Positions 15,095-51,968 of a stretch of 64,000 nucleotides of DNA are shown one piece after another; position 1 is the stretch's first letter, and the number at the start of each line of letters is the position of its first letter. Below the pieces are notes generated by a model. The model was not told where the DNA came from. It did no database searches and worked only from the letters and a program-made list of their open reading frames with translations. Source of the stretch: Acidimicrobiales bacterium (lineage in GTDB: Bacteria; Actinomycetota; Acidimicrobiia; Acidimicrobiales; Bog-793); contig JBEKBT010000004.1 of assembly GCA_050015255.1 (NCBI GenBank), positions 3,551 through 67,550 of the forward strand, given 5' to 3'. Both the position numbers and the translations under genes were made by a program.

Positions 15095-15126
15095 TATCAC
15101 CTATCTGGTAGCCGGCTTAGTCGGCA

Positions 15127-15142: not shown

Positions 15143-15217
15143 TATGAACGGATCCGGCGCGTGCCGGCAAACGATCGCAGGTGGCAGGCAAGTTCCGCCA
15201 AGGAGGGAAGCATTCAA

Positions 15218-33224: not shown

Positions 33225-33306
33225 ACGGCCGAAGCCGCCGAGACGAAGGGTAGCAGAGCCGCCCCTCGGCCCACTCGTCGTGCGCAGGGCGCCGCGGAGC
33301 TGGGGA

Positions 33307-35565: not shown

Positions 35566-35639
35566 GCCCCCGTAGCTCAGCGGAATAGAGCAGCTGCCTT
35601 CTAAGCAGACGGTCGCAGGTTCGAGTCCTGCCGGGGGTG
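35566..35639 (+). tRNA. tRNA-Arg (anticodon UCU)
   Basis: Acceptor GCCCCCG/CGGGGGU, D arm GCUC..GAGC, anticodon loop CUUCUAA, T arm GCAGG-UUCGAGU-CCUGC, discriminator G. Length 74 nt, no CCA. Confidence 0.9.
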
Positions 35640-35810: not shown

Positions 35811-36743
35811 ATGCAGATCGCGGACGACATCACCCAGCTCATCGGCAACACACCCCTCGTCCGGCTTCGCCGCCTGAACGAGGGCGGCGAGGCCCAGGTC
35901 GTGGCCAAGCTCGAATTTTTCAACCCCGCTCACAGCGTGAAGGACCGCATCGGGGTGGCAATGATCGACGCGGCCGAAGAGGCCGGCTTGATCGGGCCCG
36001 ACACGATCATCCTCGAGCCCACGAGTGGCAACACCGGTATCGCGCTGGCGATGGTGTGTGCAGCCCGTGGCTACAAGTGCGCCTTCACGATGCCCGAGAC
36101 CATGAGCAAGGAGCGGAGGGCGCTGCTGCGGGCCTACGGGGCCGAGCTGATCCTTACCCCGGGGCCCGAGGGCATGCCCGGGGCGATCGCCAAGGCGGAG
36201 GAGCTCGCCAAGAGCGACCTGCGGTATTTCATCCCACAGCAATTCGAAAATCCGGCCAATCCGGCTATCCACCGGGCCACCACCGCGAAGGAGATCTGGG
36301 ACGACACCGATGGCGAGGTCGACGTCGTCGTCTCCGGTGTCGGCACCGGAGGGACCATCACGGGCGTCGGCCAGGTTCTCAAGGCCCGCAAGCCGTCGGT
36401 GAAGATGATCGCCGTCGAGCCAGCGGCTTCTCCGGTCCTCTCGGGCGGCCAGAAGGGGCCTCATCCGATCCAGGGCATCGGCGCCGGCTTCGTCCCGGCG
36501 ATCCTGGACACTGGCATCGTGGACGAGATCATCACCGTCGAGAACGCGGACGCGTTCGACATCGCCCGGCGCGCGGCCCGCGAGGAAGGGCTGCTTGTTG
36601 GCATCTCGTCGGGTGCAGCGATCTGGGCGGCACTGCAGGTGGCGGCGCGTCCCGAGAGCTCAGGCAAGCTGATCGTGGTGATCATCCCGTCCTTCGGCGA
36701 GCGCTACCTCTCCACGGCGTTGTTCGAGGGCCTCACCGAGTGA
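35811..36743 (+). CDS. cysK: cysteine synthase A (O-acetylserine sulfhydrylase)
   Basis: Motifs [18 protein letters not shown] (PLP Lys), [12 protein letters not shown] and [10 protein letters not shown]. About 310 aa from ATG 35811. The upstream part of ORF 35637.. overlaps tRNA-Arg and is not coding. Confidence 0.92.
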
Positions 36744-36745: not shown

Positions 36746-37447
36746 ATGCTTGCGACCCTGCGGCGGGATCTGCTCTCGGCACGCGACCGCGACCCGGCGG
36801 CTCGGTCTTCGATCGAGATCGCGTTGTGCTATTCGGGCGTGCACGCCCTTTGGAGCCACCGCGTCTGTCACTCGTTGTGGCAGAACGACTTCAAGCTCCT
36901 GGCACGGGTGGGCTCGGCGCTGGCGCGCTGGCTTACCGGGGTCGAGATCCACCCCGCTGCCATCCTCGGCGAGGGCGTGTTCATCGACCATGCTAGTGGC
37001 GTGGTCATCGGCGAGACGGCTGAGGTTGGTGACGACGTGACCATCTACCAGGGCGTCACCCTTGGCGGCACGAGCCTCGACCGGGTGAAGCGTCACCCGA
37101 CGGTGGGCAACCGGGTCACCATCGGCGCCGGAGCCAAGGTTCTCGGCGCGATCACCATCGGTGACGACAGCCGCATCGGGGCCAACGCCGTCGTCGTGAA
37201 GTCGGTGCCCCCCAACTCGGTGGTGGTCGGCGTGCCGGGTCAGATAATCGCCCGCAGCCGACCCCATCGGGTCACGGACCGGCCTGACCTGGAGTCCGCC
37301 TTCATGCCAGACCTCCTCGGTTCCAGCCTGCAGTCGCTGCTGTCGCGTGTCGACGAGCTGGAGACGATCGTTGAGGGCCACAGGGACCATCACGACGTTC
37401 GCCCGTCCAAAGCCGGCGTGTGGTCCGGGGAAGACTTCTCGATCTAG
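36746..37447 (+). CDS. cysE: serine O-acetyltransferase
   Basis: [26 protein letters not shown], then hexapeptide repeats ([44 protein letters not shown]). ATG 36746 lies 2 nt after the cysK stop. Confidence 0.9.
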
Positions 37448-37468: not shown

Positions 37469-37717
37469 GTGTCTGAGCCCACGGCTCCACCCGCGGACGA
37501 GGTTCTCGACTGCACCGGGTTGGCGTGCCCGCTGCCGGTCGTGAAGACCGCGCAGGCGATCAAGAATCTCTCGCCGGGGCAAGTTCTCGAGCTCCTCGCC
37601 ACTGACCCGGGCGTCGAGCCCGACATGCGCGCATGGAGCAGCCGCACAGGCAACGAACTGCTGGGCATCAGCAAGCAGGCTGACGTCTTCCATATCCTCA
37701 TCCGCCGGGTGAAGTGA
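37469..37717 (+). CDS. tusA: TusA-like sulfur carrier (SirA/YedF/YeeD family)
   Basis: 82 aa with LDCTGLACPLPVVK (the CPxP active-site Cys motif). GTG start lies 8 nt after AAGGAGG. Confidence 0.88.
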   Translation: MSEPTAPPADEVLDCTGLACPLPVVKTAQAIKNLSPGQVLELLATDPGVEPDMRAWSSRTGNELLGISKQADVFHILIRRVK

Positions 37718-37720: not shown

Positions 37721-38113
37721 ATGGCGACGACGTGGGCCGACGACTCTGAGACCAAGATCCTCTACGTGCAGACGCACGGGGCGGACGACCCGGGGCGCAG
37801 CGCGACACCCTTCTTTCTTGCCGCCTCCGCGGCTGCGATGGAGTTCGAGGTCAAGATCTACTTCACGATGTACGGCCCTACCCTGCTGCGCAAGGACGTC
37901 GTGGACAAGATCGGCCCGAAGGGCGACCAGGGCCAGCCGTTGCGCTACTTCATCGAACAGGCGACCAGCCTCGGCGTCCGGCTTCTGGTCTGCCAGCCGT
38001 CGCTGGACCTCAACGACCTGGTGCTCGACGACCTGATCGACGGAGTCGAGGTCATCGGTGGCGCAGCCTTCAACGACCTCGCCGCCTCCGCCGATGCCGT
38101 GATCAGCTTCTAG
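37721..38113 (+). CDS. DsrE/DsrF-family sulfurtransferase
   Basis: 130 aa. ILYVQTHGADDPGRSATPFFLAASAAAM, a conserved Cys in RLLVCQPSL, and GAAFNDL. It starts 3 nt after the tusA stop. Confidence 0.8.
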   Translation: MATTWADDSETKILYVQTHGADDPGRSATPFFLAASAAAMEFEVKIYFTMYGPTLLRKDVVDKIGPKGDQGQPLRYFIEQATSLGVRLLVCQPSLDLNDLVLDDLIDGVEVIGGAAFNDLAASADAVISF

Positions 38114-38121: not shown

Positions 38122-38856
38122 ATGACCCTGACAGCCGGCCGGGAAGCCGAGACGGACGCCCACTACAAGGCCCCGGATGTCGCCGGCTACGCCGATGTGT
38201 CCTACGAAGTGAAGTTGCGGCTGTTCGACCAGGTGAAGGGCGATATGCGGTTCGGCGATTACCTGTACGGCTGCTATGAGTGCGGCATCTGCGTCGCCGC
38301 TTGCCCGTCGGCCAAGTTCTACGACTTCAGCCCGCGGCGCATCGCGCAGGCGGCCGCGCGCGAGGACGTGGACCTTTTCTACCAGCAGATGCAGGAGGAC
38401 ATCTGGGAGTGTTCCCAGTGCTTTTCCTGCCTGCGGTGCCCGCGCGGCAACAACCCGGGCGGGATCATCACGATCATGCGGGAGGTGGCCGTCCGCAACG
38501 GGCTGGCTTCGGCCAAGCAAGCCCTCGTCGGCTACTCGCGGATCATCTATAAGATCATGTCCACCGGCACGCAGGTCTCGCCGGACATGCTGCGGCCGGA
38601 CGCGTTCCCCGACTGGGGCCCCGAGACCGGCGACGTGGCGGACAACCTGGACCTGTGGCGCCGGGCCCTGCCTCCCGAGACGATGCACACGACCTCCTCC
38701 GGGTGGTCCGTCGCCGACAGGACGCTGGTCGAGCTCTACGTCATCTGGTTGGAGACCGGCGCCCTGGACATGATCGCGGAGGTCGATCGCGGCCTGCACT
38801 CGATCCTCCGGGAGCTGATGGAGGAACGCCTCGAGGAAGAAGGCATAGAGCTATGA
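38122..38856 (+). CDS. hdrC1: sHdrC1-like heterodisulfide reductase subunit C (2x[4Fe-4S])
   Basis: Carries CYECGICVAACP and CSQCFSCLRCP ferredoxin-type motifs. About 244 aa, as in sulfur-oxidiser hdrC1. Confidence 0.85.
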   Translation: MTLTAGREAETDAHYKAPDVAGYADVSYEVKLRLFDQVKGDMRFGDYLYGCYECGICVAACPSAKFYDFSPRRIAQAAAREDVDLFYQQMQEDIWECSQCFSCLRCPRGNNPGGIITIMREVAVRNGLASAKQALVGYSRIIYKIMSTGTQVSPDMLRPDAFPDWGPETGDVADNLDLWRRALPPETMHTTSSGWSVADRTLVELYVIWLETGALDMIAEVDRGLHSILRELMEERLEEEGIEL

Positions 38857-40106
38857 CAACCCCCATTGCGGCTCCGATCACCCTCAGGCGCGCCAAGGCG
38901 GCCGAGGAACCGGTCGCCGACCGCAGGTCGCTGGAAGATCCCCGCGCCGAGCTGCTCGAGCTGGAGCGGCAGGGAGAGCTGATCGTGCAGAAGATCGACC
39001 GGGAAGCGGTCACGGTGTCCACCAAATTCGGGCGCGAGAAGCGGATCCAGAAGGCGCACCTGTGGCACCACAAGTCCTGCGGCCAGTGCGGCCACATCCC
39101 CGGCTACTCCACCTCGATCTTCTGGGTGATGCGCAAGCTCGGCTACGACTACCACGACCCGCATGACCAGACGTCCTGCACGGCCTGGAATTATTACGCG
39201 AGCGCGACGTCCAACTCGGCTGCCCAGGCCGCCGTCGCCGTCCGCAACTTCGCGGCCGCGTACGAGAGCGGCTACTTCCCGCTCATCCACTGCGGCACCT
39301 CCTACGGTCACTACAAAGAGGTGAGGGAGGAGCTGATACGCCACCCAGAGCTCCGGGCCCAGGTCCGCGGCATCATGGCCAAACTGGGTAAGCCTCTGGT
39401 GCTGCCGGAGGAGATCGTGCACTACTCGGAGTGGTTCCACGCCTTGCGCGACGAGATCGCTGCGAAACAGGTCCGCGACGTGTCGAAAATCATCGTGACC
39501 GTCCATCCCGCGTGCCACTACTACAAGATCGTCTCCGGCGACGCGATCTACGACCCGGACATCTACGGCGGCCAGCGCACGGCCGTGGTGACCGGCTTGG
39601 CCGAGGCGCTCGGTGCCGAGGTGCGCAACTACTCGACCTGGTTCGACTGCTGTGGCTTCGGTTTCCGGCACATCTTGGTGCAGCGGGACTTCACGCGCTC
39701 GTTCGCCACACTGCGCAAGATCGAGGTGATGAAGGAGGAGGCCAACCCCGATGTCGTGCTGACTCACGACACCGGGTGCGTCACGACGCTGGACAAGAGC
39801 CAGTTCGCGGCCAGGGCGCACGGACGCAACGTCGGGCTCGCGGTGCTCAGCGAGGCGCAGTTCGCCGCCCTGGCGATGGGGGCCCACCCCTTCCGGGTGT
39901 GCCAGCTGCATTGGCATTCCGCCGATTACCGGCCGTTGCTCGAGAAGATGGGCATCGACTGGGAGCAGGCGTGGGCCGAGTTCCAGGGCGATCTGCGCCG
40001 ACTCGAGAGCGGCGAGAAGCGCTATCTCGACTGGGATGATGCCGATGGTACGCACGACGAGGGCGCGCCCCGGGTCTCGCCCGCCGGTCACGAACACGAA
40101 AATTGA
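38853..40106 (+). CDS. hdrB1: sHdrB1-like heterodisulfide reductase subunit B (CCG domains)
   Basis: ATGA overlap with hdrC1. CCG-type Cys motifs (HPACHYY, WFDCCGFGF, HDTGCVTT). Confidence 0.85.
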   Translation: MTTPIAAPITLRRAKAAEEPVADRRSLEDPRAELLELERQGELIVQKIDREAVTVSTKFGREKRIQKAHLWHHKSCGQCGHIPGYSTSIFWVMRKLGYDYHDPHDQTSCTAWNYYASATSNSAAQAAVAVRNFAAAYESGYFPLIHCGTSYGHYKEVREELIRHPELRAQVRGIMAKLGKPLVLPEEIVHYSEWFHALRDEIAAKQVRDVSKIIVTVHPACHYYKIVSGDAIYDPDIYGGQRTAVVTGLAEALGAEVRNYSTWFDCCGFGFRHILVQRDFTRSFATLRKIEVMKEEANPDVVLTHDTGCVTTLDKSQFAARAHGRNVGLAVLSEAQFAALAMGAHPFRVCQLHWHSADYRPLLEKMGIDWEQAWAEFQGDLRRLESGEKRYLDWDDADGTHDEGAPRVSPAGHEHEN

Positions 40107-40114
40107 GGTTACGA

Positions 40115-41233
40115 ATGTCCTCGGAAACGATTGTGGTCATCGGCGGGGGACCCGGTGGGCTGCGTGCGGCGCAAGGGATCGCAGAGATTGGTCGCAGGGC
40201 GGTGCTGATCGAGCAGCGCGAGTTCCTGGGCGGCACGCCGGTCGCGGAGAACTATTCCGGCCTGACTCCGCGAGGTGAGCCTGCTCAGCCACAGATCCGG
40301 CAGATGATCGATCAGGTCACTGCCGACCCGCTCATCGAAGTCCGGCTCGGTACCGAGCTTGTCGGGGTGTCCGGGGAGCCCGGGGCGTTCACCCTTAGGC
40401 TGCGTGGCGCGCAGACACTCGAGATGCCGGCGGCCGGTGGGCAAGAGGCCGAGGCGCCGGCGGCCGGCGACAACCAGACGGTCGAGTGCGGCGCGATCAT
40501 CATCGCCACCGGGTTCGGACATTTCGACCCTGGCCGGTCGACCCAGATGTACGGGTATTACGAGTTCCCCGACGTCATCACTCAGCCCGAGCTCGAGGCG
40601 ATGCTGTCCGAGCACCGGGTCCGGCGCCCGTCCAACGGCCAGCCACCGGAGCGGATCTGCTTCGTCCAGTGTGTGGGCAGCCGTGACCGTCAGATCGGCA
40701 ACGAGTACTGCTCGAAGGTGTGCTGCGGCGTGGCCTCCAAGGAGGCCATCGAGCTCCGGGAGCTGTTGCCGGATTCGAAGGTGCTCATCTTCTACATCGA
40801 CATGAGGATGTACGGCTACTGGGAGAACGAGATCTACTGGCCGGCCCAGGAACAGCACCATGTCCAGTATGTAAAGGGGCTGATCACCGAGGTGCTTCCG
40901 AAGGGTGACCGCTTGTTGGTGCGCGGCGAGGACACCACGATGGGCCGGCCGATGGAGGTGCCTATGGACCTGGTCGTGCTGTCGGTCGGCATGGAGCCGT
41001 CGCCCGGCACCCGCGAGCTGGCGAGGCTGCTCGGGGTGAAGCAGAACAAGTACGGGTTCATCGAGGCCGCCGGGGTGCCGCTCGACCCGGTCAGCACCGA
41101 CCGGGAGGGGATCTTCGCCTGTGGCGCGGCGCTCGGACCGGCAGATCTCGAGGACACGGTCTCCTCGGCGGCCGGTGCGGCCATGAGGGCGGTCGGCTAT
41201 TTACGGTCGCGTGCCGTCGCGGCTGTGAACTGA
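40115..41233 (+). CDS. hdrA: sHdrA-like FAD/[4Fe-4S] flavoprotein
   Basis: Dinucleotide fold IVVIGGGPGGLRAA and an HdrA-type Cys cluster FVQCVGSRDRQIGNEYCSKVCCG. ATG 40115 follows GAGG. Confidence 0.85.
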   Translation: MSSETIVVIGGGPGGLRAAQGIAEIGRRAVLIEQREFLGGTPVAENYSGLTPRGEPAQPQIRQMIDQVTADPLIEVRLGTELVGVSGEPGAFTLRLRGAQTLEMPAAGGQEAEAPAAGDNQTVECGAIIIATGFGHFDPGRSTQMYGYYEFPDVITQPELEAMLSEHRVRRPSNGQPPERICFVQCVGSRDRQIGNEYCSKVCCGVASKEAIELRELLPDSKVLIFYIDMRMYGYWENEIYWPAQEQHHVQYVKGLITEVLPKGDRLLVRGEDTTMGRPMEVPMDLVVLSVGMEPSPGTRELARLLGVKQNKYGFIEAAGVPLDPVSTDREGIFACGAALGPADLEDTVSSAAGAAMRAVGYLRSRAVAAVN

Positions 41234-41242
41234 GGCGGCCAC

Positions 41243-41998
41243 TTGCTGATGGCCGGTCCTGTAGTCGACACGGAGAGCGCGCTGGAGTTCCAACGCGAGA
41301 TCATGGAACAGGTAAGCGAGGCGGAATTAAAGGCCATCGCCGCTGATCTCGACCGCAAGTCGGCGGCGTTGCGAGAGCTCTTGTCCGGCGAGCCGTCCCT
41401 CTTGGGCCGCGCCGCTCTGCGGCAGGTGCTGCGTTGGGTGTTCGCTACCCGGCGGCGCGCCGACCGGATCCTGGACTCGCTCGGCCCGCAGCCGCTGGCG
41501 GCGGCCATCGCCGGGCTTCTGGCCGGTGACGAGCCCGTGGCGGACCGGATCGATCGCTTCGACGCCGCCTTCAGCGGGCGCGCCGCCCAGGTCGCACTGG
41601 CAGGCTCCGGCTTCGATCTCCCCACGGAACTGCTGCATTTCACCTCGCCCGAGCGGTACTGGCTGTGGACCAGGTGGATATTCGATCCCGATGCCCGGAC
41701 CGGTGCCTTGGCTCTGGTCACGACCGATGACGTGGATCTGGGCGCGGGAGCCACCAGGGGCGCGGTCTACCTCACCGTCGGGCGGGCAACGGCCTTTGTC
41801 GACGAGACCGGAAAGGCCGCCGGCTTTACCGTGGCGGGTCCCGGTCTGTTCGGCGTCGATGTCCTGCTGGCCGCGGTCTACGGGGTCTACATGTACACAG
41901 TCCTGCGGATGCGGATGACCCGTGAGTTCAACCGGGTGATCCCGCCGCTGCCCGATCTCATTCGCCGCCTGCTCGGCGTCTATCACCTGGAGGGCTAG
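41243..41998 (+). CDS. conserved hypothetical protein of sHdr clusters (hyp)
   Basis: About 250 aa with no recognisable cofactor motif. It occupies the hyp position between hdrA and the hdrC2/B2-type gene. The start is TTG 41243 or ATG 41249. Confidence 0.7.
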   Translation: MLMAGPVVDTESALEFQREIMEQVSEAELKAIAADLDRKSAALRELLSGEPSLLGRAALRQVLRWVFATRRRADRILDSLGPQPLAAAIAGLLAGDEPVADRIDRFDAAFSGRAAQVALAGSGFDLPTELLHFTSPERYWLWTRWIFDPDARTGALALVTTDDVDLGAGATRGAVYLTVGRATAFVDETGKAAGFTVAGPGLFGVDVLLAAVYGVYMYTVLRMRMTREFNRVIPPLPDLIRRLLGVYHLEG

Positions 41999-42002
41999 GA
42001 CC

Positions 42003-43310
42003 GTGCCTGTAGGTGGCCGGAAGATCCCGCCGGTCGCAGTGGAAAAGGAGCTGGCGACGGTCGCCTCCACCATCTCGGGGCGCGAGGTGGAGCTACCGGC
42101 GATGTGGAACCGGATGTTCGAGCCGCGGGTCCTCACCGACTACGGCCCGGATGGATTCGCCGCGATCTCGACCCTGCCCGGTGGTGAGTCGCTGGAATGG
42201 TGTTACGGCTGCGGCAAGTGCGTGCCGGTCTGCCCGGTCGACATGGTGGGCGACTATGGCCCGCGCAAGATCCACCGCAAGGTCCAGACCGGAACTCAGC
42301 TGCTGGCCGACGCCGATCTGTGGCTGTGCACCACTTGCGCCAACTGCCTGCGGGTCTGTCCGAAACAGGTCGACATGACCGCCATCATGCCGGCCGTGCG
42401 CGAGGCCGCGCTCAGCAGTGCGGAGGTGCCGGCGGAGCTGCAGGACGTCTTCGAGAAGACCTTCCGGCACGGCAACGCGCTCGGGCAGAGTCAGCGGCGC
42501 CGGGCGCAGTGGGCAGACAGCGCCGGGGTCCCCGTGCGGGTGCTGGCCAAGGATCCGGCACCCGTCGACGTGCTTTTCTACGTGGAGGACTACTGGAGCT
42601 TCCACCCCCGCGGCCAGGACGCGGCCCGCGCCTTCGCCAGGGTGGCCTCGGCGCTCGGCATCGACTGGGCGATTCTCGGCCCGGAGGAGAAGACGCTCGG
42701 TGACTCTCAGCGTCTTGCCGGCGAGAAGGGCCTGTTCGACGCGCTGGTCGAAGATGTCACCACGGTCCTGGCGAAATACGAGTTCGCCCGGATCGTGACG
42801 CCTGACCCGCATGCTTTCAACGCCCTGGTCAGGGAGTACCCGCGGCGCGGGCACACCTTCGATGCGCTGCACTACACACAGCTCCTCGCGCCCCTGGTCG
42901 GTCAGATCGACTGGGCCAGGGAGCTGAACTTGCGGGTGACCTTTCACGATCCGTGCTATTTGGGAAGGCAGCACGGCGAGTACGACGCCCCCCGGACGCT
43001 GCTCGAGGCGATTCCCGGCGTCGAAGTTGTCGAGATGGGCCGCTGCCGGGAGAACGCCTACTGCTGCGGTGGTGGCGGCGGCGGCATGTGGCTGGACGGT
43101 TTCACGAGAGATCACACGACCGAGCGCCTTTCCGAGCGCCGGGTTCGCGAGGCCGCCCAGACCGGGGCCGACGTGCTGGCGGTCTGCTGTCCTTATGAGG
43201 TGTCCAGGTTCACCGACGCCGCCAAGGCGACCGGTCACGAGGACCTGCGTGTGTGCGACGTCATCGAGCTGATGGACGAGGCGATGCGGGACGAGGCGCA
43301 AGGTGGTTGA
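42003..43310 (+). CDS. fused HdrC2-HdrB2-like Fe-S/CCG protein (HdrB3/HdrD-like)
   Basis: The N-terminal part has two ferredoxin motifs (CYGCGKCVPVCP, CTTCANCLRVCP). The C-terminal part has two CCG domains (HDPCYLGR, YCCGGGGG, VCCPYE). The exact start is uncertain. Confidence 0.82.
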   Translation: MPVGGRKIPPVAVEKELATVASTISGREVELPAMWNRMFEPRVLTDYGPDGFAAISTLPGGESLEWCYGCGKCVPVCPVDMVGDYGPRKIHRKVQTGTQLLADADLWLCTTCANCLRVCPKQVDMTAIMPAVREAALSSAEVPAELQDVFEKTFRHGNALGQSQRRRAQWADSAGVPVRVLAKDPAPVDVLFYVEDYWSFHPRGQDAARAFARVASALGIDWAILGPEEKTLGDSQRLAGEKGLFDALVEDVTTVLAKYEFARIVTPDPHAFNALVREYPRRGHTFDALHYTQLLAPLVGQIDWARELNLRVTFHDPCYLGRQHGEYDAPRTLLEAIPGVEVVEMGRCRENAYCCGGGGGGMWLDGFTRDHTTERLSERRVREAAQTGADVLAVCCPYEVSRFTDAAKATGHEDLRVCDVIELMDEAMRDEAQGG

Positions 43311-44331
43311 GCCGCTGCGAGTCGTCGACTCCGGTCTCAGCTCGCCGTTGCGTTCCCAGACCCTGTGGCATGCGATCGCCTACGGGGTGTCCGCCGGGGG
43401 ACGGGCGACTCTCTCTTTTTGCCGCCCGGCCGAGCCGTACGTCTGCCTCGGCTACCACCGGGGGATCGACGAGGTGGACCGCGACTACTGCCGGGAGAAC
43501 GGCCTGCCCCTCTTGCGGCGGATGGTGGGCGGCGGTCCGGTCTACCTGGACTCGGACCAGCTGTTCTTCCAGATCTGCCTGCCGGCCCGGGCGGTGCCAG
43601 CGGCCCGTCGCCAGGCCCTGCGCGTGCTGCTCGAGCCCGTCGTGACCGCTTTCCGCGCGGTCGGGGTGCCAGCGGCACTCGATGACGACCTGGAGATCTG
43701 CCTCGACGATCGCAAGATCTGCGGGCACGGGGCGGGCCAGATCGAGGACGCCGTGGTGGTCTGCGGCAACCTGATCCAGCGGTTCGACCACGAGCGGGCG
43801 GCCCGGGTGCTCGCCCTGGCCGATCCCGCCCAGAGGGACCAGACGCTCGCGCTGATGCACCGCTTCGTCGCCGCGACCCCGCTCGACCCGGCTGCCTTCC
43901 AGGCGGCCATGATCAGTGCCTACGCCACTGCGCTCGGGCTCGGTGCGCAAGGCGGTGCGTTGACCGGGACCGAGCGGACGGTGCTCGAGGGCCTTGACGA
44001 AAGATTCACCAGCGATACCTGGTTGGCCGGACCGGTCCGGCCCGCGACGGCAAGAGCCGGGAGACCCAGTGCTCGCCAGGTCAAGGTGCGAGCCGGGGTG
44101 TGGACGCTCGGCGCGACATACGACGGGGCACAGGTCGCCGCTGGCGTGGTCCGGGGGACGGTCGAGAAGGTGCGGCTGCACGACCGCGGACTGAACGGGT
44201 CGACAGAGCAGGCGGAAGAGGCCCTCCAGGGCATCCCGTTGCATTCGGTCGCTCGAGTGCTGACGGGCTTTGGTGATCCAGGGCGCCGGCTGGCTGCGGC
44301 CTTCGCGACAGCCGATCCCGGGAGGCTCTGA
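43303..44331 (+). CDS. lipoate-protein ligase family protein (LplA-like, copy 1)
   Basis: Motifs LRRMVGGGPVYLD and DDRKICGHGAGQ (LplA-type RRxxGGGxV and catalytic Lys context). GTG start overlaps the preceding gene by 8 nt. Confidence 0.78.
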   Translation: MVEPLRVVDSGLSSPLRSQTLWHAIAYGVSAGGRATLSFCRPAEPYVCLGYHRGIDEVDRDYCRENGLPLLRRMVGGGPVYLDSDQLFFQICLPARAVPAARRQALRVLLEPVVTAFRAVGVPAALDDDLEICLDDRKICGHGAGQIEDAVVVCGNLIQRFDHERAARVLALADPAQRDQTLALMHRFVAATPLDPAAFQAAMISAYATALGLGAQGGALTGTERTVLEGLDERFTSDTWLAGPVRPATARAGRPSARQVKVRAGVWTLGATYDGAQVAAGVVRGTVEKVRLHDRGLNGSTEQAEEALQGIPLHSVARVLTGFGDPGRRLAAAFATADPGRL

Positions 44332-44795
44332 TGGAAGAAACTGCGCTCGTCATCGTGTCCGGCTTCCCGCTCGCTCTCGACCGGCGCTACCAAGCGGAGA
44401 CGCACATGTGGGTGCTGGATACCGGACCGGGCCGGGTGAGGATCGGGATGGACCCGCTCGGGATCGAGACCAGCGGAACCCTGGCTCAGCTGTCGTTTCT
44501 GCCGACAGGGACCGAGCTCACAGCAGGCCGGCCGTTCGGCCAGCTGGAGGCGGCCAAGTTCGTGGGCCCGCTCCTCAGCCCCGTCTCAGGCGCCATGCTG
44601 GCCGTGAACGACGCGGTCGCCCGTGACCCGGGCCTGGCAGAGCGGGACCCGTACGGGGCCGGCTGGCTGATCGAGGCGAGCGTGAGCGAAACCGCCGGCG
44701 AGCTGTCGGGGCTTCTCGCCGAGCCGGCCGAGATCACCGCCTGGTTCGCGGCCAGGATCGCCCACTACCGGCTGAACGGGCTGCTCGCGCAATGA
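44331..44795 (+). CDS. lbpA: GcvH-like lipoate-binding protein LbpA (copy 1)
   Basis: 154 aa. THMWVL...VRIGMDP, the lipoyl-Lys context GQLEAAKFVGPLLSPVSGAMLAVN, and DPYGAGWL. Confidence 0.85.
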   Translation: MEETALVIVSGFPLALDRRYQAETHMWVLDTGPGRVRIGMDPLGIETSGTLAQLSFLPTGTELTAGRPFGQLEAAKFVGPLLSPVSGAMLAVNDAVARDPGLAERDPYGAGWLIEASVSETAGELSGLLAEPAEITAWFAARIAHYRLNGLLAQ

Positions 44796-45781
44796 CCACG
44801 GCGCAAGCGCTGTCGCGCCCCGCCGCGGTGCGGCGGGCGAACTTCCCTGACGTGATGGATTTTTACGCGCCGGGCCTGAAGCGCTGGCAAACCTCGGAGT
44901 GGGTCCCGACCACTCCCCGACGGTTCCTGCCCGTATCGGTCACCGGCTCGGCGTGCGCTCTGTCCTGCGACCACTGCCAGGCGAAGGTGCTCGACGGCAT
45001 GGTGTCGGTCCGCGCAGGTCAGGACCTGTTCACACTCGCAGCTCGCCTCCGCGAGGAGGGGAGCGAGGGGCTGCTCGTATCGGGCGGTTCCACCCGCGCC
45101 GGCGGGGTGCCGTTGTTGGCGCATCTGCGCCACATCGCGCGGATCCGCAGCGAGCTCGGGATGAAGGTCGTCGTGCACTCGGGCCTGGTGTCGCCCGAGC
45201 TCGCGGCCGGCCTGGCAGCATCGGGCGTGGACGGTGTGATGCTCGATGTCATCGGGTCCGACGAGACACTGCGCGACGTCTACCACCTCGACCTGACCGT
45301 GGCCGACGTGGACCGTTCGCTGCGGCTGCTGTCCGAGGCCGGGCTGCGGATCATCCCGCACATCGTCCTCGGTCTGCACTACGGCCGTTTCCTGGGCGAG
45401 CACCGGGCGCTGGAGATGGTCACCCGATACCCGGTCTCGACACTGATCCTGGTGCTGCTCGTGCCGCTCGTCGGCACGCCGATGGCGCATGTGCCGCCGC
45501 CCCCCGTCGATCAGGTGGCGGAGTTTTTCGCCACCGCCCGCTTGGCCGCTCCGTCGACGACGATCAATCTCGGCTGCGCCCGCCCGTTCGGTGCGCTGAA
45601 AGGGGAGCTCGACCGGGCGGCGATCGACCTCGGGCTGAACGGCATCGCCTATCCGGCGGACGGCGCAATCGAGTACGCGAGGTCGCGCGGGCTTGCACCG
45701 CGGCTGTTCGAGTACTGCTGCTCGCTCACCTGGAACGGGGCACAGGACAGCGGCTTGGCCGCCGTGCAGGTGACCAGGTGA
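44792..45781 (+). CDS. radical SAM protein (LipS1/LipS2-type lipoyl synthase component)
   Basis: CX3CX2C motif in VTGSACALSCDHCQA. ATGA overlap with lbpA. Confidence 0.8.
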   Translation: MTTAQALSRPAAVRRANFPDVMDFYAPGLKRWQTSEWVPTTPRRFLPVSVTGSACALSCDHCQAKVLDGMVSVRAGQDLFTLAARLREEGSEGLLVSGGSTRAGGVPLLAHLRHIARIRSELGMKVVVHSGLVSPELAAGLAASGVDGVMLDVIGSDETLRDVYHLDLTVADVDRSLRLLSEAGLRIIPHIVLGLHYGRFLGEHRALEMVTRYPVSTLILVLLVPLVGTPMAHVPPPPVDQVAEFFATARLAAPSTTINLGCARPFGALKGELDRAAIDLGLNGIAYPADGAIEYARSRGLAPRLFEYCCSLTWNGAQDSGLAAVQVTR

Positions 45782-46926
45782 GCGAGACGTGGCGGCTACT
45801 GGCCGACGACGGCGCCGGGGCAGCCGAGGGACTCGCCCTGGACGAAGCGCTGATGAGCCGGTACGCACGGGACGAACCGGACTGTCCGCCGACGTTGCGG
45901 CTCTACAGCTATCGCGATCACTGCGCCCTGATCGGCCGCTACCAGAACCTCGAGGCCGAGGTCGACCTGGCCGCCTGCCGTCGCACCGGCACCGAGGTCA
46001 GCCGCAGGCTCACGGGCGGAGGTGCCATCGTCATGGGATCTGGCCAGTTGGGAATTGCCTACGTCGACCGGGCACGGACCGACCAGCGTCCGCGGGAGAC
46101 CATCGAGGAACTCTCGGCCGCGCTCGTCGCCGGCTGCGCTCGACTGGGCATCCCTGCGAGCTTCGGTGGCAAGAACGACCTGGAGGTCGGCAGCCGGAAG
46201 ATCGCCGGCCTCGGGCTCTATGTCGACTCGGCCGGCGCGATGCTCTTCCACGCGAGTGTCCTGGCCGACCTCGACGTCGCGTTCATGCTTCAAGTGCTGC
46301 AGATACCCGCAGCGAAAATGGCCGACCGGGCCACGGCCGCGGTGACCGAGCGGATCACGACTGTCTCTGCCGAGACCGGCGCCCGGCACGACGCCGCGAC
46401 TCTTAGACCGGTCATCGCCGACAGCTTCGCGACGACCTTCGGGGTGTCCCTGGAGCCTGCGATGCCTAACCGGCAGGAGCAGGCTCACGCCGTTGCCCTC
46501 GCTGCCAGCAGGTACCGGTCGCAGGCCTGGCTGAGCGAGCGGAGCGTCGCGGCGGATGCCAGCGGGTCGTCGCTGTTGAAGACGCCGGCAGGGCTGGCCA
46601 GGATCTATCTCGCCACCCATGGTGACCTGGTCAAGAGTGTGATGGTCGCCGGGGACTTCAACGAGCTGCCACCCGCCCTGGCGGCTATGGAGTCCGGCCT
46701 TCGCTGGCGACGCCTGGAGCACGACGCCATCCTCGCCGTTGTTGCCCGCTCGCAGGCGGCCGACGCGCTGGGCGTCGCACCCGAGCGACTCGCCGCCGCC
46801 GTGATGGAGGCAGGCCGCCAGGCGGGCGAAAAAGACGCGGCCAGGGCGGTCCGGGCCACGGACTCCTGTTTGTTGCCTGAGCCGGTCGACGCCGCGGATC
46901 GGCGCTGTTGCCCCGAGCCGGGCTGA
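45778..46926 (+). CDS. lipoate-protein ligase A family protein (LplA-like, copy 2)
   Basis: Motifs LRLYSY, SRRLTGGGAIVM and GSRKIAGLGLY, with a C-terminal accessory domain. GTGA overlap with the preceding gene. The first ~293 codons of track ORF 44899..46926 are an out-of-frame shadow. Confidence 0.82.
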   Translation: MSETWRLLADDGAGAAEGLALDEALMSRYARDEPDCPPTLRLYSYRDHCALIGRYQNLEAEVDLAACRRTGTEVSRRLTGGGAIVMGSGQLGIAYVDRARTDQRPRETIEELSAALVAGCARLGIPASFGGKNDLEVGSRKIAGLGLYVDSAGAMLFHASVLADLDVAFMLQVLQIPAAKMADRATAAVTERITTVSAETGARHDAATLRPVIADSFATTFGVSLEPAMPNRQEQAHAVALAASRYRSQAWLSERSVAADASGSSLLKTPAGLARIYLATHGDLVKSVMVAGDFNELPPALAAMESGLRWRRLEHDAILAVVARSQAADALGVAPERLAAAVMEAGRQAGEKDAARAVRATDSCLLPEPVDAADRRCCPEPG

Positions 46927-46937
46927 AGAGAGACGCC

Positions 46938-48023
46938 ATGGTGGTCACCCAGCTTCTTCCACTGCCTGCAGCCGGCCTGCCGACCAAGGACAGCCCGGAG
47001 TACGTGCGCATCTCCATGGCGAGCGCGATCGCGCTACGGATGCGCTCGGGCCAGTTCAGCCGGGACTTCGGCTTCGGTGGCATCAACCTGTTGCTCAACT
47101 ACGAGCAAGGGTGCCGGTCCGACTGCGGCTACTGCGGGCTCGCCCGTACCCGCCCGGGCAGTTACGAGGACAAGTCGTTCATAAGGGTGGAGTGGCCGCT
47201 CGTGCGAACCGATGATCTCGTGGAGCGGGTGGCGCTTTTCGAGCCGGGGCTGACACGGCTCTGCATCTCGATGGTGACTCACGGCCGCGCGTACCGAGAT
47301 ACCTGCGATATCGCGCGGAGGATCGCCGAACGCGTCCGGACTCCGGTATCCGTCCTCGTCGCGCCGCCGACGCTGAGGCGCGAGCGCCTCGAGACCTTCA
47401 GGTCGATCGGTGTCGACATGATCGGGATCGGGCTCGACGCCGTCACCGAGAAGCTTTTCCGGAGCATTCGCACCGAGGTTCCTGCAGGTGGCCTGAAGTG
47501 GGAGAAGTACTGGGAGGTCGTGACCGACGCCCGCGACATCTTCGGGCCGTGGAAGGTGAACGTGCACACTCTGGTCGGGCTCGGTGAGTCGGACCAGGAC
47601 CTGCTCGCTCTGTTCGTCGCGCTGCGGGACCGGCAGATCTTCTCCTACCTGTTCTGCTTCAACCCGGAGCCTGACTCGCGCATGGCCGCCCAGCCGCAGC
47701 CCTCGCTCAGGCGCTGGCGCCGGGTACAGCTGGCCAGGCACCTGATCGAGGTTGAAGGCTACGGATTGGAGCAGTTCGGCTTCGACAGCGGCGGCGGGAT
47801 TGCCCGCGTGCGGGCGGACCGCTCCGCCATCGAAGAAGTCGTCGCGGACGGCAGGGCGTTCATGACCAACGGCTGCCCGGGCGAGAAGGGTGAACCTGGA
47901 TGCACGAGGCCGTACGGTTCGTACCGGCCCGGAGAATCGTTCCGCGACTACCCATTTCTGCCGGCGGCGAGCGATCTCGAGGAGATCGGCCGCCAGCTGG
48001 GGTTGGATGATGTCGTCGGATGA
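46938..48023 (+). CDS. radical SAM protein (biotin/lipoyl-synthase-like, LipS1/LipS2-type)
   Basis: CX3CX2C motif in YEQGCRSDCGYCGLA. About 361 aa from ATG 46938. Confidence 0.8.
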   Translation: MVVTQLLPLPAAGLPTKDSPEYVRISMASAIALRMRSGQFSRDFGFGGINLLLNYEQGCRSDCGYCGLARTRPGSYEDKSFIRVEWPLVRTDDLVERVALFEPGLTRLCISMVTHGRAYRDTCDIARRIAERVRTPVSVLVAPPTLRRERLETFRSIGVDMIGIGLDAVTEKLFRSIRTEVPAGGLKWEKYWEVVTDARDIFGPWKVNVHTLVGLGESDQDLLALFVALRDRQIFSYLFCFNPEPDSRMAAQPQPSLRRWRRVQLARHLIEVEGYGLEQFGFDSGGGIARVRADRSAIEEVVADGRAFMTNGCPGEKGEPGCTRPYGSYRPGESFRDYPFLPAASDLEEIGRQLGLDDVVG

Positions 48024-48041: not shown

Positions 48042-48833
48042 GTGCGAATCGTCGTGCCAGTGAAGGCGGTGCCCGATCTCGTCGAGGAGATCGATCTCAC
48101 CGCGGACGAGACCGGCATCGACCGGGAGTACCTGACGTTCGTGCTCGGCGAGTGGGACGCTCAGGCTCTCGAAGAGGCGCTGCTGTTGAAGGACGCCAGC
48201 GGGGCCGAGGTCGTGGCCGTCGGCCTGGCCGGTGACCCCGAGATCGACCAGATCCTCTACACCGCGCTCGCCAAGGGCGCGGACGCGGCCGTGAAGCTCG
48301 CTGACGCGAGTGGCGCGGTGTCGCCCGGACCGGCCGGGATCAGGATCGCCGACCGGGCCGCGCTCGTGGCAGGGTACCTCGAGGCTCAGCCTGCCGATCT
48401 GGTGATCTCCGGCGTGCAGGCCGCTGACGATCTGGACGGCCAACTGCCGCCCACGCTCGCTGCGCTCCTCGACCTGCCGCACGTCTCGGTGGCAGTCAGC
48501 GTCGAGGCCGAGGACGGCTCGGTCATCGTCCGCCAGGAGTTCGCCGGCGGGCGGTCACACGAGCTGCAGGTGCAAATGCCCGCCGTGATCGGTGTCCAGT
48601 CGGCCCGCCAGCCCCCTCGCTACGCCCCGATCACCCGGATCAAACAGGCCATGCAGGCGGGAGGGCTGACCGAGCTGGCGGTGTCGTCGCCGGCGATGCG
48701 AAGAGGCGTGGTCGTGCGCCGGATGCACCGCCCGGAGACGAGCGGCCAGGCCGAGATGCTCGAGGGCAGTCCCGGCGAGGTGGCGGATCAGATCGTGGGC
48801 CTGCTTCGCGCACGTGGCCTGATGAAAGGGTGA
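48042..48833 (+). CDS. etfB: electron transfer flavoprotein beta subunit
   Basis: MRIVVPVKAVPD... and EWDAQALEEALLLKD. GTG start follows GAGAGGTGGG. Confidence 0.88.
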   Translation: MRIVVPVKAVPDLVEEIDLTADETGIDREYLTFVLGEWDAQALEEALLLKDASGAEVVAVGLAGDPEIDQILYTALAKGADAAVKLADASGAVSPGPAGIRIADRAALVAGYLEAQPADLVISGVQAADDLDGQLPPTLAALLDLPHVSVAVSVEAEDGSVIVRQEFAGGRSHELQVQMPAVIGVQSARQPPRYAPITRIKQAMQAGGLTELAVSSPAMRRGVVVRRMHRPETSGQAEMLEGSPGEVADQIVGLLRARGLMKG

Positions 48834-48840: not shown

Positions 48841-49803
48841 GTGAGCGGCAATGTGATGGTGCTCGCCGAGCACACCGGCATGCAGGTCTCCGAGGGGACC
48901 TACGAGCTGATCGGCAAGGCGCACGAGCTGGCATCCGCGCTGGGCGGCCTGACCGAGGTGGCCCTGCTCGGACCCGCCGAACTGGCAGGCCAGCTCGGCG
49001 GCGCCGACGTCGTGGTCTCCGTCGATCACCCGGCCCTTGCGGAGTACCTGCCGGAGGCCTACGAGCGGGCGCTGTTGGAGGTGCTGGCACAGCGATCCCC
49101 GCGGCTGTTGCTGATCTCGAACGGGACTGTCGGCCTGGACCTGGCGGCCGCGCTCTCGGTGCGCTGGGACGCGCCACTGGCCGCTTATGTCAGCGCGCTC
49201 GAGATCGACGACGGCGTCGTGACCGCCACTGCGCAGATCCTCGGCGGGAAGGTGCTCGCGGAGCTCGAGCTGCCCGGTGAGCGCGCGATCGCCACCGTGC
49301 TCGGAGGCGCCTTAAGCGTGGAGACGGGCCGCGGCGCCCTCGGCGCGCAGGTGGTGCCCATCACGCCGCCGGCCGGGCTCGACGCGCTGCGGATGTCGCT
49401 TCGACAGGTCGTCGAAGCCGACGGGGGAGACCTCGACATCAGCTCGGCCGAGATGCTGGTCTCGGTCGGCCGCGGGATCGAGTCGCAGGAGAACATGGAG
49501 ATCGTGGCTGAGCTCGCCGACGCTCTCGGCGTCCCGCTTTCGGCGTCGCGCCCCGTGGTGGACGCAGGATGGCTGCCGAAGACCCGCCAGGTGGGCCAAT
49601 CGGGCTTGAAAGTCAAGCCCCGGGTGTATCTCGCGCTCGGCATCTCTGGAGCTCCCGAGCACCTGGAGGGCATGCGCAACGCCGAGCTGATCGTGGCCTG
49701 CAACACCGATCCTGGAGCGCCGATCTTCGGCGTCGCCCACTACGGCACGACCGTGGATCTCTTCGATCTGGTTCCGGAGCTCGTGGGCAAGGTCCGCGGC
49801 TGA
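48841..49803 (+). CDS. etfA: electron transfer flavoprotein alpha subunit
   Basis: C-terminal FAD-binding region with VSVGRGI, SRPVVDAGW, QVGQSGLKVKPRVYLALGISGAPEH and IVACNTDPGAPIF. Confidence 0.88.
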   Translation: MSGNVMVLAEHTGMQVSEGTYELIGKAHELASALGGLTEVALLGPAELAGQLGGADVVVSVDHPALAEYLPEAYERALLEVLAQRSPRLLLISNGTVGLDLAAALSVRWDAPLAAYVSALEIDDGVVTATAQILGGKVLAELELPGERAIATVLGGALSVETGRGALGAQVVPITPPAGLDALRMSLRQVVEADGGDLDISSAEMLVSVGRGIESQENMEIVAELADALGVPLSASRPVVDAGWLPKTRQVGQSGLKVKPRVYLALGISGAPEHLEGMRNAELIVACNTDPGAPIFGVAHYGTTVDLFDLVPELVGKVRG

Positions 49804-49805: not shown

Positions 49806-51968
49806 ATGACGGGCCAGCTCGGCCTGGTGGGCACGGCGGTGACCCGGCCGGTCTTCGAGGGCATCGGCCCGCTCGGAAAGGCGATCTTCTACGCGGTGGC
49901 CGCTGTGTCGACGGCCGTCTTCGCCTGGGGGGTCTGGCACCGGGTGCGGAAATACCGTATCGGCCGGGCGGCGGGGCGCGGGCCGACGATCCGGGCTGCT
50001 CTCGGCGGCCGGCTGGGCTCTATCGGCAAGGGGGCATCGGTGGCGAGAGGCAACCGCGCGACCGGTGTGGCGCACTTCCTCATCTTCTGGGGCTTCCTGG
50101 TCGCCTTCCTGGCGACGGTCATCCTCACGATCGACACCGACGTCGTCCGGAACCTCTCCCGGCTGATCGCCGGGCACGAGGACAGCTTCTTTCACGGCAC
50201 GTTCTTTATCGTCTACACCTTCGCGGTAGACACGTTGGGATTCGCGTTTCTCCTCGCCCTCGTCTACATGGTGGTCCGTCGAGGCGTGCGCAGACCCTGG
50301 CGTCTCGGCTACAGCCGGGCGGGCACGCCCGCCGGCGGCTACTCCCGCAAGGCCATGGTGGAGGGCGACTGGCTTTTCCTGGGACTGCTCCTGGCCGTCC
50401 TCGTCACCGCTTATGTGCTGACCGGCCTGCGGATCCTCGGCCAGCACATGCCGTGGTTCACCGTGTTCAGCCCGTTCGCCAGGGTCTTCGCCGAGGCCTT
50501 TTCCGGCCTCGGCATGACGGCGGCCCAGGCCGTGAGCGCCCACACCGTCTTGTGGTGGGTGCACGCCGGCCTCGCGCTGAGCTTCATCGCCTACATCCCC
50601 TACTCCAAGGCCATGCACATGCTCCTCGACGGGGTGAACCTGGTCGCCACGGACCGGTCGGCGACGCTCGCGCTACCCGCGCCGGTGGCGGACCACCCGG
50701 GCTATCAGGAGATCTCCGACTTCACCTGGAAAGAGCTGCTCGACCTCGACGCGTGCACGAGATGCGGCCGCTGCCACGAGGTGTGCCCGGCACGCGCCGG
50801 CGGGGCGCCGCTCTCGCCGCGCGACCTGATCCTCGACCTGCGCCAGTGGGTGGACACTTCGACAGGGGGGATCACGCTGCTGGACCGCGAGCGGAGGCCT
50901 GAGCGCACGGGCCCGCTCGCGAAGCCCGACGGAGTCAGGATCGCCGGGGACGTGATCGATGCCGGCGCGTTGTGGTCCTGCACGACGTGCATGCATTGCA
51001 TTGACGTCTGCCCGGTGGGCGTCGAGCACGTGCCCACGATCGTCCAATTACGGCGCAGCCTGGTCGACGAGGGAACCATGGACGCCACCTTGCAGCAGGC
51101 CCTGCAGAACCTGGCCACACAGGGCAACTCGCTCGGGAAGTCGGCCCGGATGCGAGGCCGTTGGACCCGTGAGCTGGACTTCGAGATCCCAGACGCCCGC
51201 AAGCACCCGGTTAAGTACCTATGGTTCGTTGGCGACTTCGCCAGTTTCGACGAGCGGCTGCAGGAGAGTTCCCGCATCCTCGCCAGGATCCTGCACGACG
51301 CGGGCGTCGATTTCGGCCTGTTGTACGAGGCGGAGCGCAACGCGGGCAACGACGTGCGCCGGGTCGGCGAGGAGGGCCTGTTCGAGGTGCTCGCCGAGCA
51401 CAACCTCGAGGCCCTACGCGAGGCCAGCTTCGACGAGATCTTCACGACCGACCCGCACACGCTCAACGCCCTGCGCAACGAGTACCCCGCGCTGGGGGCG
51501 AGCTACCCGGTCTGGCACTACACCGAGCTGCTCGCCCAGTTGTTAGAGGGCGGCGCCATCGGCGTCGGGCCGCTTGGCTACCGGGTCACCTACCACGATC
51601 CGTGCTATCTGGCCCGTTACAACGGCGTGGTCGAGGCGCCCCGGCGGATCCTGCGGGCGCTCGGCTGCGAACTGATCGAGATGCCCCGCAACGGCGCGGA
51701 CACCTTCTGCTGCGGCGCAGGCGGCGGCCGGATCTGGATGGAGGACAGCCTCCTCAAGGAGCGGCCGAGCGAGAACCGGATCGGCGAGGCACTGCGCCTG
51801 GGCGTGGGACAGTTCGTCGTTGCCTGCCCGAAGGACGTGACCATGTTCTCCGATGCGGTCAAGACTGTCCGGGCTGATGATCGGCTCGCCGTCCGCGACA
51901 TCACGTTGCTGGTACAGGAGGCCATCGCAAGGCTTGCCGAGCCCGGCGTCGTCGGAGAGACGGTGTGA
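49806..51968 (+). CDS. membrane-anchored Fe-S oxidoreductase (NarI/DsrM-like TM module fused to an HdrD/DsrK-like module; EMO-type Etf:quinone oxidoreductase candidate)
   Basis: About 5 N-terminal TM helices with conserved His (VAHFLIFWGF, HTVLWWVHAGL). Then CTRCGRCHEVCP and CTTCMHCIDVCP, then CCG domains (HDPCYLARYNG, FCCGAGGG, VACPKD). ATG 49806 lies 2 nt after the etfA stop. Confidence 0.8.
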   Translation: MTGQLGLVGTAVTRPVFEGIGPLGKAIFYAVAAVSTAVFAWGVWHRVRKYRIGRAAGRGPTIRAALGGRLGSIGKGASVARGNRATGVAHFLIFWGFLVAFLATVILTIDTDVVRNLSRLIAGHEDSFFHGTFFIVYTFAVDTLGFAFLLALVYMVVRRGVRRPWRLGYSRAGTPAGGYSRKAMVEGDWLFLGLLLAVLVTAYVLTGLRILGQHMPWFTVFSPFARVFAEAFSGLGMTAAQAVSAHTVLWWVHAGLALSFIAYIPYSKAMHMLLDGVNLVATDRSATLALPAPVADHPGYQEISDFTWKELLDLDACTRCGRCHEVCPARAGGAPLSPRDLILDLRQWVDTSTGGITLLDRERRPERTGPLAKPDGVRIAGDVIDAGALWSCTTCMHCIDVCPVGVEHVPTIVQLRRSLVDEGTMDATLQQALQNLATQGNSLGKSARMRGRWTRELDFEIPDARKHPVKYLWFVGDFASFDERLQESSRILARILHDAGVDFGLLYEAERNAGNDVRRVGEEGLFEVLAEHNLEALREASFDEIFTTDPHTLNALRNEYPALGASYPVWHYTELLAQLLEGGAIGVGPLGYRVTYHDPCYLARYNGVVEAPRRILRALGCELIEMPRNGADTFCCGAGGGRIWMEDSLLKERPSENRIGEALRLGVGQFVVACPKDVTMFSDAVKTVRADDRLAVRDITLLVQEAIARLAEPGVVGETV

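Follow-up and report, generated by a model that had tools for sequence, protein, structure and literature searches.

The window analysed here, a stretch of 64,000 nucleotides from the genome of an Acidimicrobiales bacterium, carries a complete, ordinary type II heterodisulfide reductase-like (sHdr) system of an uncultured peat actinobacterium. Its five core genes, shdrC1, shdrB1, shdrA, shdrH and shdrB3, lie consecutively on the + strand at positions 38122-43310, with overlaps of at most 4 nt and gaps of at most about 15 nt. Sequence and analogy together make it very probable that a type II system, in which sHdr and the lipoate-binding protein LbpA oxidize protein-bound sulfane sulfur to sulfite in the cytoplasm, has its catalytic core in this region. 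A preliminary description of the same DNA had read the gene order as hdrC1 with two ferredoxin motifs, hdrB1 with CCG domains, hdrA with a CSxxCC cluster, a conserved hypothetical gene and a fused 435-aa gene; all five genes are present, the interval coincides with the boundaries of the core, and the three motif assignments agree with Pfam matches and invariant Cys residues.

Type II is defined by shdrC1B1AHB3 and etfAB in one syntenic cluster, with emo, which encodes an electron transfer flavoprotein (ETF):menaquinone oxidoreductase (EMO); TusA and DsrE3A are the usual partners (Tanabe 2024, PMC11094781). The window has the syntenic core; etfAB and emo; a fused sHdrB3 with one noncubane cluster site; LbpA, an sLpl(AB)-type lipoate-protein ligase, LipS1 and LipS2; and tusA and dsrE3A directly before shdrC1, a coupling to sulfur-carrier genes that had already been pointed out. 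The suggestion that the core, etfBA and a membrane Fe-S protein downstream make up the type II arrangement agrees with the published definition, and a single fused gene follows shdrH instead of the separate hdrC2 and hdrB2 of type I.

The window belongs to contig C4 of a 3.39-Mb metagenome-assembled genome (MAG; 197 contigs, 91% complete), whose closest relatives are Acidimicrobiales/Acidimicrobiaceae MAGs of peat and soil surveys. Type II systems have been found in 130 GTDB R207 assemblies that span twelve bacterial phyla and one archaeal phylum, with Chloroflexota, Actinobacteriota and Bacillota accounting for most of them (PMC11094781, which cites Justice 2014, Cao 2018 and Kumpel 2024 on type II). 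The high-GC actinobacterial context that the preliminary description thought worth noting is thus genuine but already published: the system has been described, Actinobacteriota included, and the window adds a member, not a concept. What is added here is an EtfD-based reading of sHdrB3 and EMO, which may in part have been proposed already by Kumpel 2024, together with the lineage-specific neighbours of the cluster.

Core subunits and their kinship with sHdr proteins

A search with the fused protein returned 80 related loci (sHdrB3 identity 70-97%), and Cys conservation was tabulated over 66-80 homologues from these loci. In nearly all 80 loci the genes from tusA to lbpA2 stand in the same order (tusA-dsrE-C1-B1-A-H-B3-...-etfBA-emo-lbpA), so that the pattern is not due to chance. 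In TusA, the Cys of its C-P motif is invariant (66/66 homologues), as is Cys91 of the adjacent DsrE protein (70/70), whose top PDB match is 3MC3 (E 2.3e-21), the DsrE3A of S. solfataricus (PMC11094781). All eight Cys residues in the two ferredoxin motifs of sHdrC1 are invariant in its 68 homologues, and sHdrC1 is 45% identical (213 bits) to type I sHdrC1. Likewise, C76, C79, C109, C147, C221, C266, C267 and C309 of sHdrB1 are conserved in 71 of 71 homologues; sHdrB1 shares 51% of its residues with type I sHdrB1 (401 bits) as against 21% with type I HdrB2, and the identity of both subunits to their type I counterparts far exceeds their likeness to HdrB2 and HdrC2.

Five Cys residues of sHdrA, in the pattern C-x3-C...C-S-K-V-C-C, are invariant among homologues. 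The top PDB match of sHdrA, over its full length, is 6TJR, the sHdrA of Hyphomicrobium denitrificans (E 7.5e-85), whereas methanogen HdrA in the PDB aligns over residues ~125-365 only (~1e-57). Relative to 6TJR, the window protein has an Ala/Gly/Glu-rich insertion of ~20 residues (residues ~101-122; window 40400-40470); its homologues are mostly shorter, at 354 aa versus 372 aa. The product of shdrH, which is the conserved 'hyp' of all sHdr clusters, has no match in Pfam or NCBIfam scans; its AF2 model is all-alpha (pLDDT 89, pTM 0.88), and a Foldseek search of the PDB with that model gave no fold relative (best E 0.44).

In a tree of 51 HdrA proteins built on 233 shared columns, the short sHdrA proteins, comprising the type I anchors and the type II clade, are split by a branch with support 100/98 from 23 long HdrA proteins, a methanogen HdrA among them; the type II sHdrA clade has support 100/99, and the window protein nests there among Acidimicrobiaceae. 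The phylogenetic check proposed in the preliminary description, sHdr against non-sulfur Hdr, places HdrA with sHdrA, and the companion check on ligands finds the Cys residues invariant in HdrC1, HdrB1, HdrA and the C-terminal CCG domain of the fused subunit. Membership of the sHdr clade is indicated both by this branch and by the likeness of sHdrB1 to its type I counterpart, with a type I anchor set that is narrow. The anchors were found by a search with the 6TJR sequence, and the type I context of one was confirmed (locus L117, with separate hdrC2 and hdrB2 of 258 aa and 314 aa). A homologue search with the window HdrA supplied no type I anchors, the matches listed all being at least 72% identical, and in a search of 50%-identity representatives type II sHdrA falls into about one cluster plus fragments. 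Locus L073, labelled 'Burkholderiales', was rejected as a type I source: its coordinates match an Actinomycetota sample, and the search there gave long HdrA and type II sHdrA, with no type I.

The fused subunit and a predicted route to menaquinone

The preliminary description had sHdrB3 combine two ferredoxin-type motifs with two CCG domains in place of HdrC2 and HdrB2. Both motifs are there, in the form CxxCxxCxxxCP, with C67/70/73/77 and C109/112/115/119 invariant in 80/80 homologues, and so are two CCG folds; two cluster sites are not. In the second fold, C318/354/355/395/396 are invariant in 80/80 and C348 in 79/80, and Pfam CCG matches the protein once, at residues 312-397. The first fold (~188-275) is strongly conserved and contains no Cys in any of 27 aligned homologues; therefore sHdrB3 can hold one noncubane cluster, not two, as was reported for this subunit (PMC11094781, citing Kumpel 2024).

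The two halves of sHdrB3 have different nearest relatives. In split BLAST comparisons, residues 1-160 match type I HdrC2 best (80 bits, 29% identity; the cluster's own HdrC1 gives 52 bits), whereas residues 161-435 match the EMO of the same cluster best (177 bits, 39%), followed by M. smegmatis EtfD (140 bits), type I HdrB2 scoring 24 bits. A fold search with the AF2 model, which is of moderate quality (pLDDT 70.7, pTM 0.71) with low-confidence cluster loops, returned M. smegmatis EtfD (9ojn) first (E 5e-18, TMq 0.58), then LutA, HdrB and HdrC, and the sequence aligns to 9ojn over the Fe-S domains (E 2e-46). These comparisons suggest that 'fusion of HdrC2 and HdrB2' fits the architecture of sHdrB3 but not the ancestry of its CCG half.

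EtfD binds a linear [3Fe-4S] cluster at site D1 (Cys503, 538, 581 and 584) and a non-catalytic noncubane [4Fe-4S] cluster at site D2 (Cys637, 672, 673, 709 and 712, with His583); since the D1 ligands are missing from FadF and DgcB, D2 is the probable site to which ETF delivers electrons (PMC13083937). HMMER alignments, whose numbering reproduces the Cys positions of that paper, place D196, T231, D268 and A271 of sHdrB3 opposite the D1 ligands C503, C538, C581 and C584. EMO has Asp, Asn, Asp and Thr there and, aligned to 9ojn, is without the ligands of the linear [3Fe-4S] cluster. At D2, C637, C672, C673, C709 and C712 of EtfD correspond to C318, C354, C355, C396 and E399 of sHdrB3, and H583 to H270; EMO keeps the first four Cys and the His, with Asp for C712. 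Because the D1 ligands are lost and the D2 noncubane ligands kept, including the His that makes the cluster non-catalytic, sHdrB3 may be read as an ETF-docking and electron-transfer module; we infer that electrons leave the complex through this subunit and that, unlike HdrB2, it is not a disulfide reductase.

The top PDB match of EMO is 9ojn (E 6e-78). Both residues aligned to the haem-b ligands of EtfD, His78 and His241, are His, and with its D2 residues EMO conforms to the architecture of the EtfD/EMO family. HdrB3 and EMO separate cleanly into two clades in a joint tree, with largely parallel organism groupings. The same genome encodes a separate EtfD homologue (contig C42:12479-13603, locus L003), both CCG domains of which score above the Pfam cut-off; in the joint tree this paralogue falls beside M. 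smegmatis EtfD and apart from the sHdr-linked EMO.

A mechanism can be proposed from these parts. TusA and the DsrE3A-type transferase, whose genes and carrier Cys are present, would bring sulfane sulfur, or a thiosulfonate, to the complex, as their homologues suggest. Lipoylated LbpA would act at the sHdrB1 site, the cluster supplying its own lipoate ligases and LipS1/LipS2. By analogy with type I genetics and the sHdrA structure, sHdrC1 with its two cubane clusters, sHdrB1 with its two four-Cys CCG sites and sHdrA with FAD and a [4Fe-4S] cluster would form the oxidizing unit. Electrons would exit through sHdrB3, in which an HdrC2-like ferredoxin head is joined to a CCG body that is soluble and paralogous to the cytoplasmic part of EMO/EtfD; EtfAB would then shuttle them from sHdrB3 to the homologous D2 site of EMO, from which two cubane clusters and haem b would relay them to menaquinone. 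With the 2026 EtfD structure mapped onto sHdrB3 and EMO, there is now a concrete model, open to testing, of how type II systems may deliver electrons to the quinone pool.

Several points weigh against this account. The role of type II in sulfur dissimilation is unproven, unlike that of type I (PMC11094781). For the HdrA tree, the software flagged long branches that meet, all of the type I anchors being close alphaproteobacterial relatives. The support for an ETF-docking role of sHdrB3 consists of homology and ligand mapping; E399 stands in place of Cys712 of EtfD with the invariant C395 adjacent to C396, and the real coordination may differ. The PDB rankings of EtfAB are ambiguous between the bifurcating and the non-bifurcating kind. 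Finally, searches of the 91%-complete genome yielded no SoxB, SoxZ or YeeE/SoxT-type importer, and a lithotrophic lifestyle is accordingly not supported.

Sulfur source and alternative readings

The genome carries rhodaneses, three TauE-family proteins that may be interpreted as sulfite exporters, and two molybdopterin oxidoreductase-domain proteins. A metallo-beta-lactamase/rhodanese fusion of 490 aa (contig C40, locus L127:1701-3170, - strand) can be interpreted as a persulfide dioxygenase-rhodanese, which would provide a second route from persulfide to sulfite. A pyridine-nucleotide-disulfide-reductase/rhodanese fusion of 570 aa (contig C37:13300-23000, locus L126), interpretable as CoA-persulfide-reductase-like, adjoins a second Hdr-like set, composed of a 734-aa protein carrying two ferredoxin dicluster domains, together with a CCG protein of 378 aa and a Pyr_redox_2 protein of 377 aa. 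Because no Sox or YeeE genes were found, the fusions are present, cysK-cysE stand at the head of the cluster and an encapsulin is its neighbour, we hypothesize that internal sulfane sulfur (from cysteine, persulfides, or thiosulfate via rhodaneses) may be the substrate in peat heterotrophs.

A further possibility, though a less likely one, is that the system detoxifies or recycles internal sulfane sulfur from cysteine breakdown or persulfides in a heterotroph and does not serve the energy-yielding oxidation of external sulfur. The missing Sox and importer genes and the two rhodanese fusions would fit such a role, but gene absence in an incomplete MAG is weak evidence, and the presence of a dedicated EtfAB-EMO connection to menaquinone implies respiratory conservation of the electrons. 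The cysK-cysE pair, the encapsulin desulfurase downstream and the other desulfurase found there in two sister species would fit it as well; however, both cysKE and the encapsulin vary from species to species in the genus, and the cultured carriers that were checked have neither.

The encapsulin neighbour, which comes immediately behind dsrE2 and lies outside the sHdr system as defined, is of Family 2A (SrpI-like) and is followed by a cysteine desulfurase cargo (Table 1). Of 20 genomes of the genus, 6 encode the encapsulin, which shares a contig with HdrB3 in four cases, this genome and three sister species, always ~10 kb downstream on the same strand. Since the two linked sister species that were checked have the whole downstream synteny of the window, the linkage is one inherited arrangement, confined to a single subclade of the genus. 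A general link between encapsulin and sHdr was rejected, encapsulin being absent or unlinked in ten other carriers (Amycolatopsis, Streptomyces, Mycolicibacterium, Gordonia, Ferrithrix and five MAGs). Two encapsulin-free sister species have a different, SufS-like desulfurase (32% identity) at the encapsulin position. An open reading frame (ORF) of 509 aa at 56159-57688, in a lower-GC stretch and without a Pfam match, is probably a real gene, since the encapsulin-bearing sister species have conserved copies of it (62-66% identity).

A more elaborate scheme, which we consider improbable, would have cysteine made by CysK and CysE desulfurated in the Family 2A encapsulin, stored there as elemental sulfur and drawn via DsrE2, TusA, DsrE3A and LbpA into sHdr, the electrons passing via sHdrB3, EtfAB and EMO to menaquinone. 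If true, the encapsulin would be a respirable sulfur reserve, and the encapsulin field would gain its missing remobilization route; a literature search found no paper naming encapsulin, cysteine desulfurase and heterodisulfide reductase together.

It is very unlikely that EtfAB-EMO takes no electrons from sHdr and feeds reducing power to LipS1/LipS2 in place of LipT, which has been described as a possible electron donor of these enzymes (PMC11094781). In the window, etfB directly follows lipS2, and no LipT-type domain is among the Pfam matches of the cluster genes, though no search aimed at LipT was made; yet etfBA-emo stands directly after hdrB3 in loci without intervening lipoate genes (Ferrithrix thermotolerans, L072; also L056-58, L062-63, L071 and L078-79), EMO retains the haem and quinone-side architecture of EtfD, and sHdrB3 is a paralogue of the ETF-facing module of EMO. 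The least credible alternative, a non-sulfur Hdr-like complex (Flx-Hdr, LutABC/GlcF-type or methanogen-type) placed by chance beside sulfur-carrier genes, can point to weak NCBIfam matches to HdrA/B/C, TfrB, LdhH, GlcF and GlpC models and to the ~40% identity of the window HdrA to long HdrA proteins across residues 125-370, but these NCBIfam scores are all far under the curated cut-offs (for the methanogen equivalogs, HdrC 74 vs 350, HdrB 126 vs 450 and HdrA 226 vs 1400 bits), HdrA is short and falls on the sHdrA side of its tree, HdrB1 shares 51% identity with type I sHdrB1, and tusA, dsrE, lbpA and lipS1/2 co-occur with the core in nearly all 80 loci. A type II sHdr-LbpA core, predicted to deliver electrons through EtfAB and EMO, is the preferred reading.

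Distribution, gene neighbourhood and known systems

HdrB3 was found in 17 of 20 other species genomes of the window's genus, an uncultured peat lineage, in 20 of 36 genomes of its family, in none of 24 genomes from other families of the order and in 7 of 400 genomes in an even sample of the phylum; the type II family is patchy yet well populated. Its cultured carriers include Amycolatopsis acididurans, A. alkalitolerans, Streptomyces caeni, Mycolicibacterium moriokaense, Gordonia rhizosphera, G. sedimidis and Ferrithrix thermotolerans, and such cultured, tractable actinomycetes are potential genetic models of the type II system, which has been little studied.

About 18 tightly packed genes on the + strand (~35.8-52.5 kb of the window) run from cysK through lbpA2 in the order cysK-cysE-tusA-dsrE3A-shdrC1B1AH-B3, ligase-lbpA1-lipS1-ligase-lipS2, etfBA, emo, lbpA2 (Table 1), with two LplA-like ligase paralogues interleaved with lbpA1 and lipS1 (43303-46926). 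A tRNA at 35566-35639 rules out a longer start of the cysK ORF, and among the related loci cysK stands upstream of tusA only in part of the species of the genus. After a 222-nt gap behind lbpA2 comes dsrE2, whose product matches the DsrE2-type structures 3PNX and 2QS7 in the PDB (~E 1e-16); synteny past dsrE2 varies between species. A promoter and terminator scan gave nothing exceeding shuffled expectation.

Table 1. Positions and matches of the sHdr cluster genes and their neighbours in the window
Gene or product	Position	Strand	Matches and remarks
cysK, cysteine synthase	35811..36743	+	Pfam PALP E 3e-75; start approximate
cysE, serine O-acetyltransferase	36746..37447	+	Hexapep and SATase_N matches; ATG 2 nt past the cysK stop
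tusA, sulfur carrier	37469..37717	+	Pfam TusA E 7e-23
dsrE3A-type sulfur transferase	37721..38113	+	Pfam DsrE; 130 aa
shdrC1, two cubane [4Fe-4S] motifs	38122..38856	+	244 aa; Fer4_8 E 3.6e-9
shdrB1, proposed catalytic subunit, two CCG-type domains with 4 Cys each	38853..40106	+	417 aa; Pfam CCG E 3.9e-10
shdrA, short FAD/[4Fe-4S] flavoprotein	40115..41233 (alternative TTG start 40103)	+	Pyr_redox_2 domain; database copy 372 aa
shdrH, conserved protein	41249..41998 (alternative TTG start 41243)	+	present in 79 loci
shdrB3, HdrC2-like ferredoxin head and EtfD/EMO-like CCG body, single noncubane site	42003..43310	+	435 aa; Fer4_8 E 4e-10, CCG E 3.5e-17
diverged LplA-like ligase paralogue	43303..44331	+	LplA-B_cat E 9e-22, part of the catalytic domain; NCBIfam lipoyltrans far under cut-off
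lbpA1, GcvH-like lipoate-binding protein	44331..44795	+	Pfam GCV_H E 1.6e-20; lipoyl-Lys context present
lipS1, radical-SAM lipoyl synthase	44792..45781	+	NCBIfam LipS1 E 1e-65, 222 bits vs cut-off 230
sLpl(AB)-type lipoate-protein ligase	45778..46926	+	LplA-B_cat E 3e-37; NCBIfam LplAB and lipoyltrans; GTG start overlaps the lipS1 stop
lipS2, radical-SAM lipoyl synthase	46908..48023	+	NCBIfam LipS2 E 6e-57, 193 bits vs cut-off 270
etfB	48042..48833	+	Pfam ETF; top PDB match 1O94_C (ETF beta of M. methylotrophus), E 5e-31
etfA	48841..49803	+	Pfam ETF_alpha E 3e-32
emo, ETF:menaquinone oxidoreductase, EtfD homologue	49806..51968	+	720-aa membrane Fe-S protein; haem-b domain, two cubane motifs, one noncubane site
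lbpA2, second lipoate-binding protein	52018..52452	+	Pfam GCV_H E 1e-34; kept after emo in most loci
dsrE2-type sulfur transferase	52675..53205	+	Pfam DrsE_2 E 1e-44; 176 aa; right-hand end of the conserved cluster
Family 2A (SrpI-like) encapsulin	53367-54305	+	Pfam SrpI-like E 2e-101
cysteine desulfurase cargo, N-terminally extended	~54310-56040	+	Aminotran_5 E 6e-147

Elsewhere in the window, a class II (B12-dependent) ribonucleotide reductase at 15080-19165 is split by an intein with a LAGLIDADG domain, and a cobalamin riboswitch (33119-33254, - strand; Rfam 41 bits) lies upstream of genes for ECF-transporter components, a prenyltransferase-like repeat protein and others.

Among known systems, the type II sHdr-LbpA system shares with the window its genes, their order, the partner proteins, the single noncubane site of sHdrB3 and a reported phylum; nothing essential differs, the extras of the window being the cysK-cysE head, the two ligase paralogues, the second lbpA and the encapsulin tail. 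Type I sHdr of Hyphomicrobium denitrificans and relatives has orthologous HdrC1, HdrB1, HdrA and HdrH, and the head of sHdrB3 is like its HdrC2; type I nevertheless has its own separate hdrC2 and hdrB2 and is without etfAB-emo, and the CCG body of sHdrB3 is barely like HdrB2. Methanogen HdrABC (5ODC, 8RVU) has in common with the window the folds of an HdrC-like ferredoxin, HdrB-like CCG domains and a thioredoxin-reductase-like HdrA core, but its HdrA is ~650 aa long, against 372 aa, with extra domains that are absent from the window, where moreover one CCG domain of sHdrB3 is Cys-free. M. smegmatis EtfD (9ojn) aligns with EMO over the membrane haem-b and Fe-S domains and with sHdrB3 over the Fe-S domains; unlike EtfD, sHdrB3 is without a membrane domain, and both window proteins are dedicated to the sulfur gene cluster. 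B. subtilis FadF and P. aeruginosa DgcB resemble EMO and sHdrB3 in being without the D1 ligands and in keeping D2 and its His.

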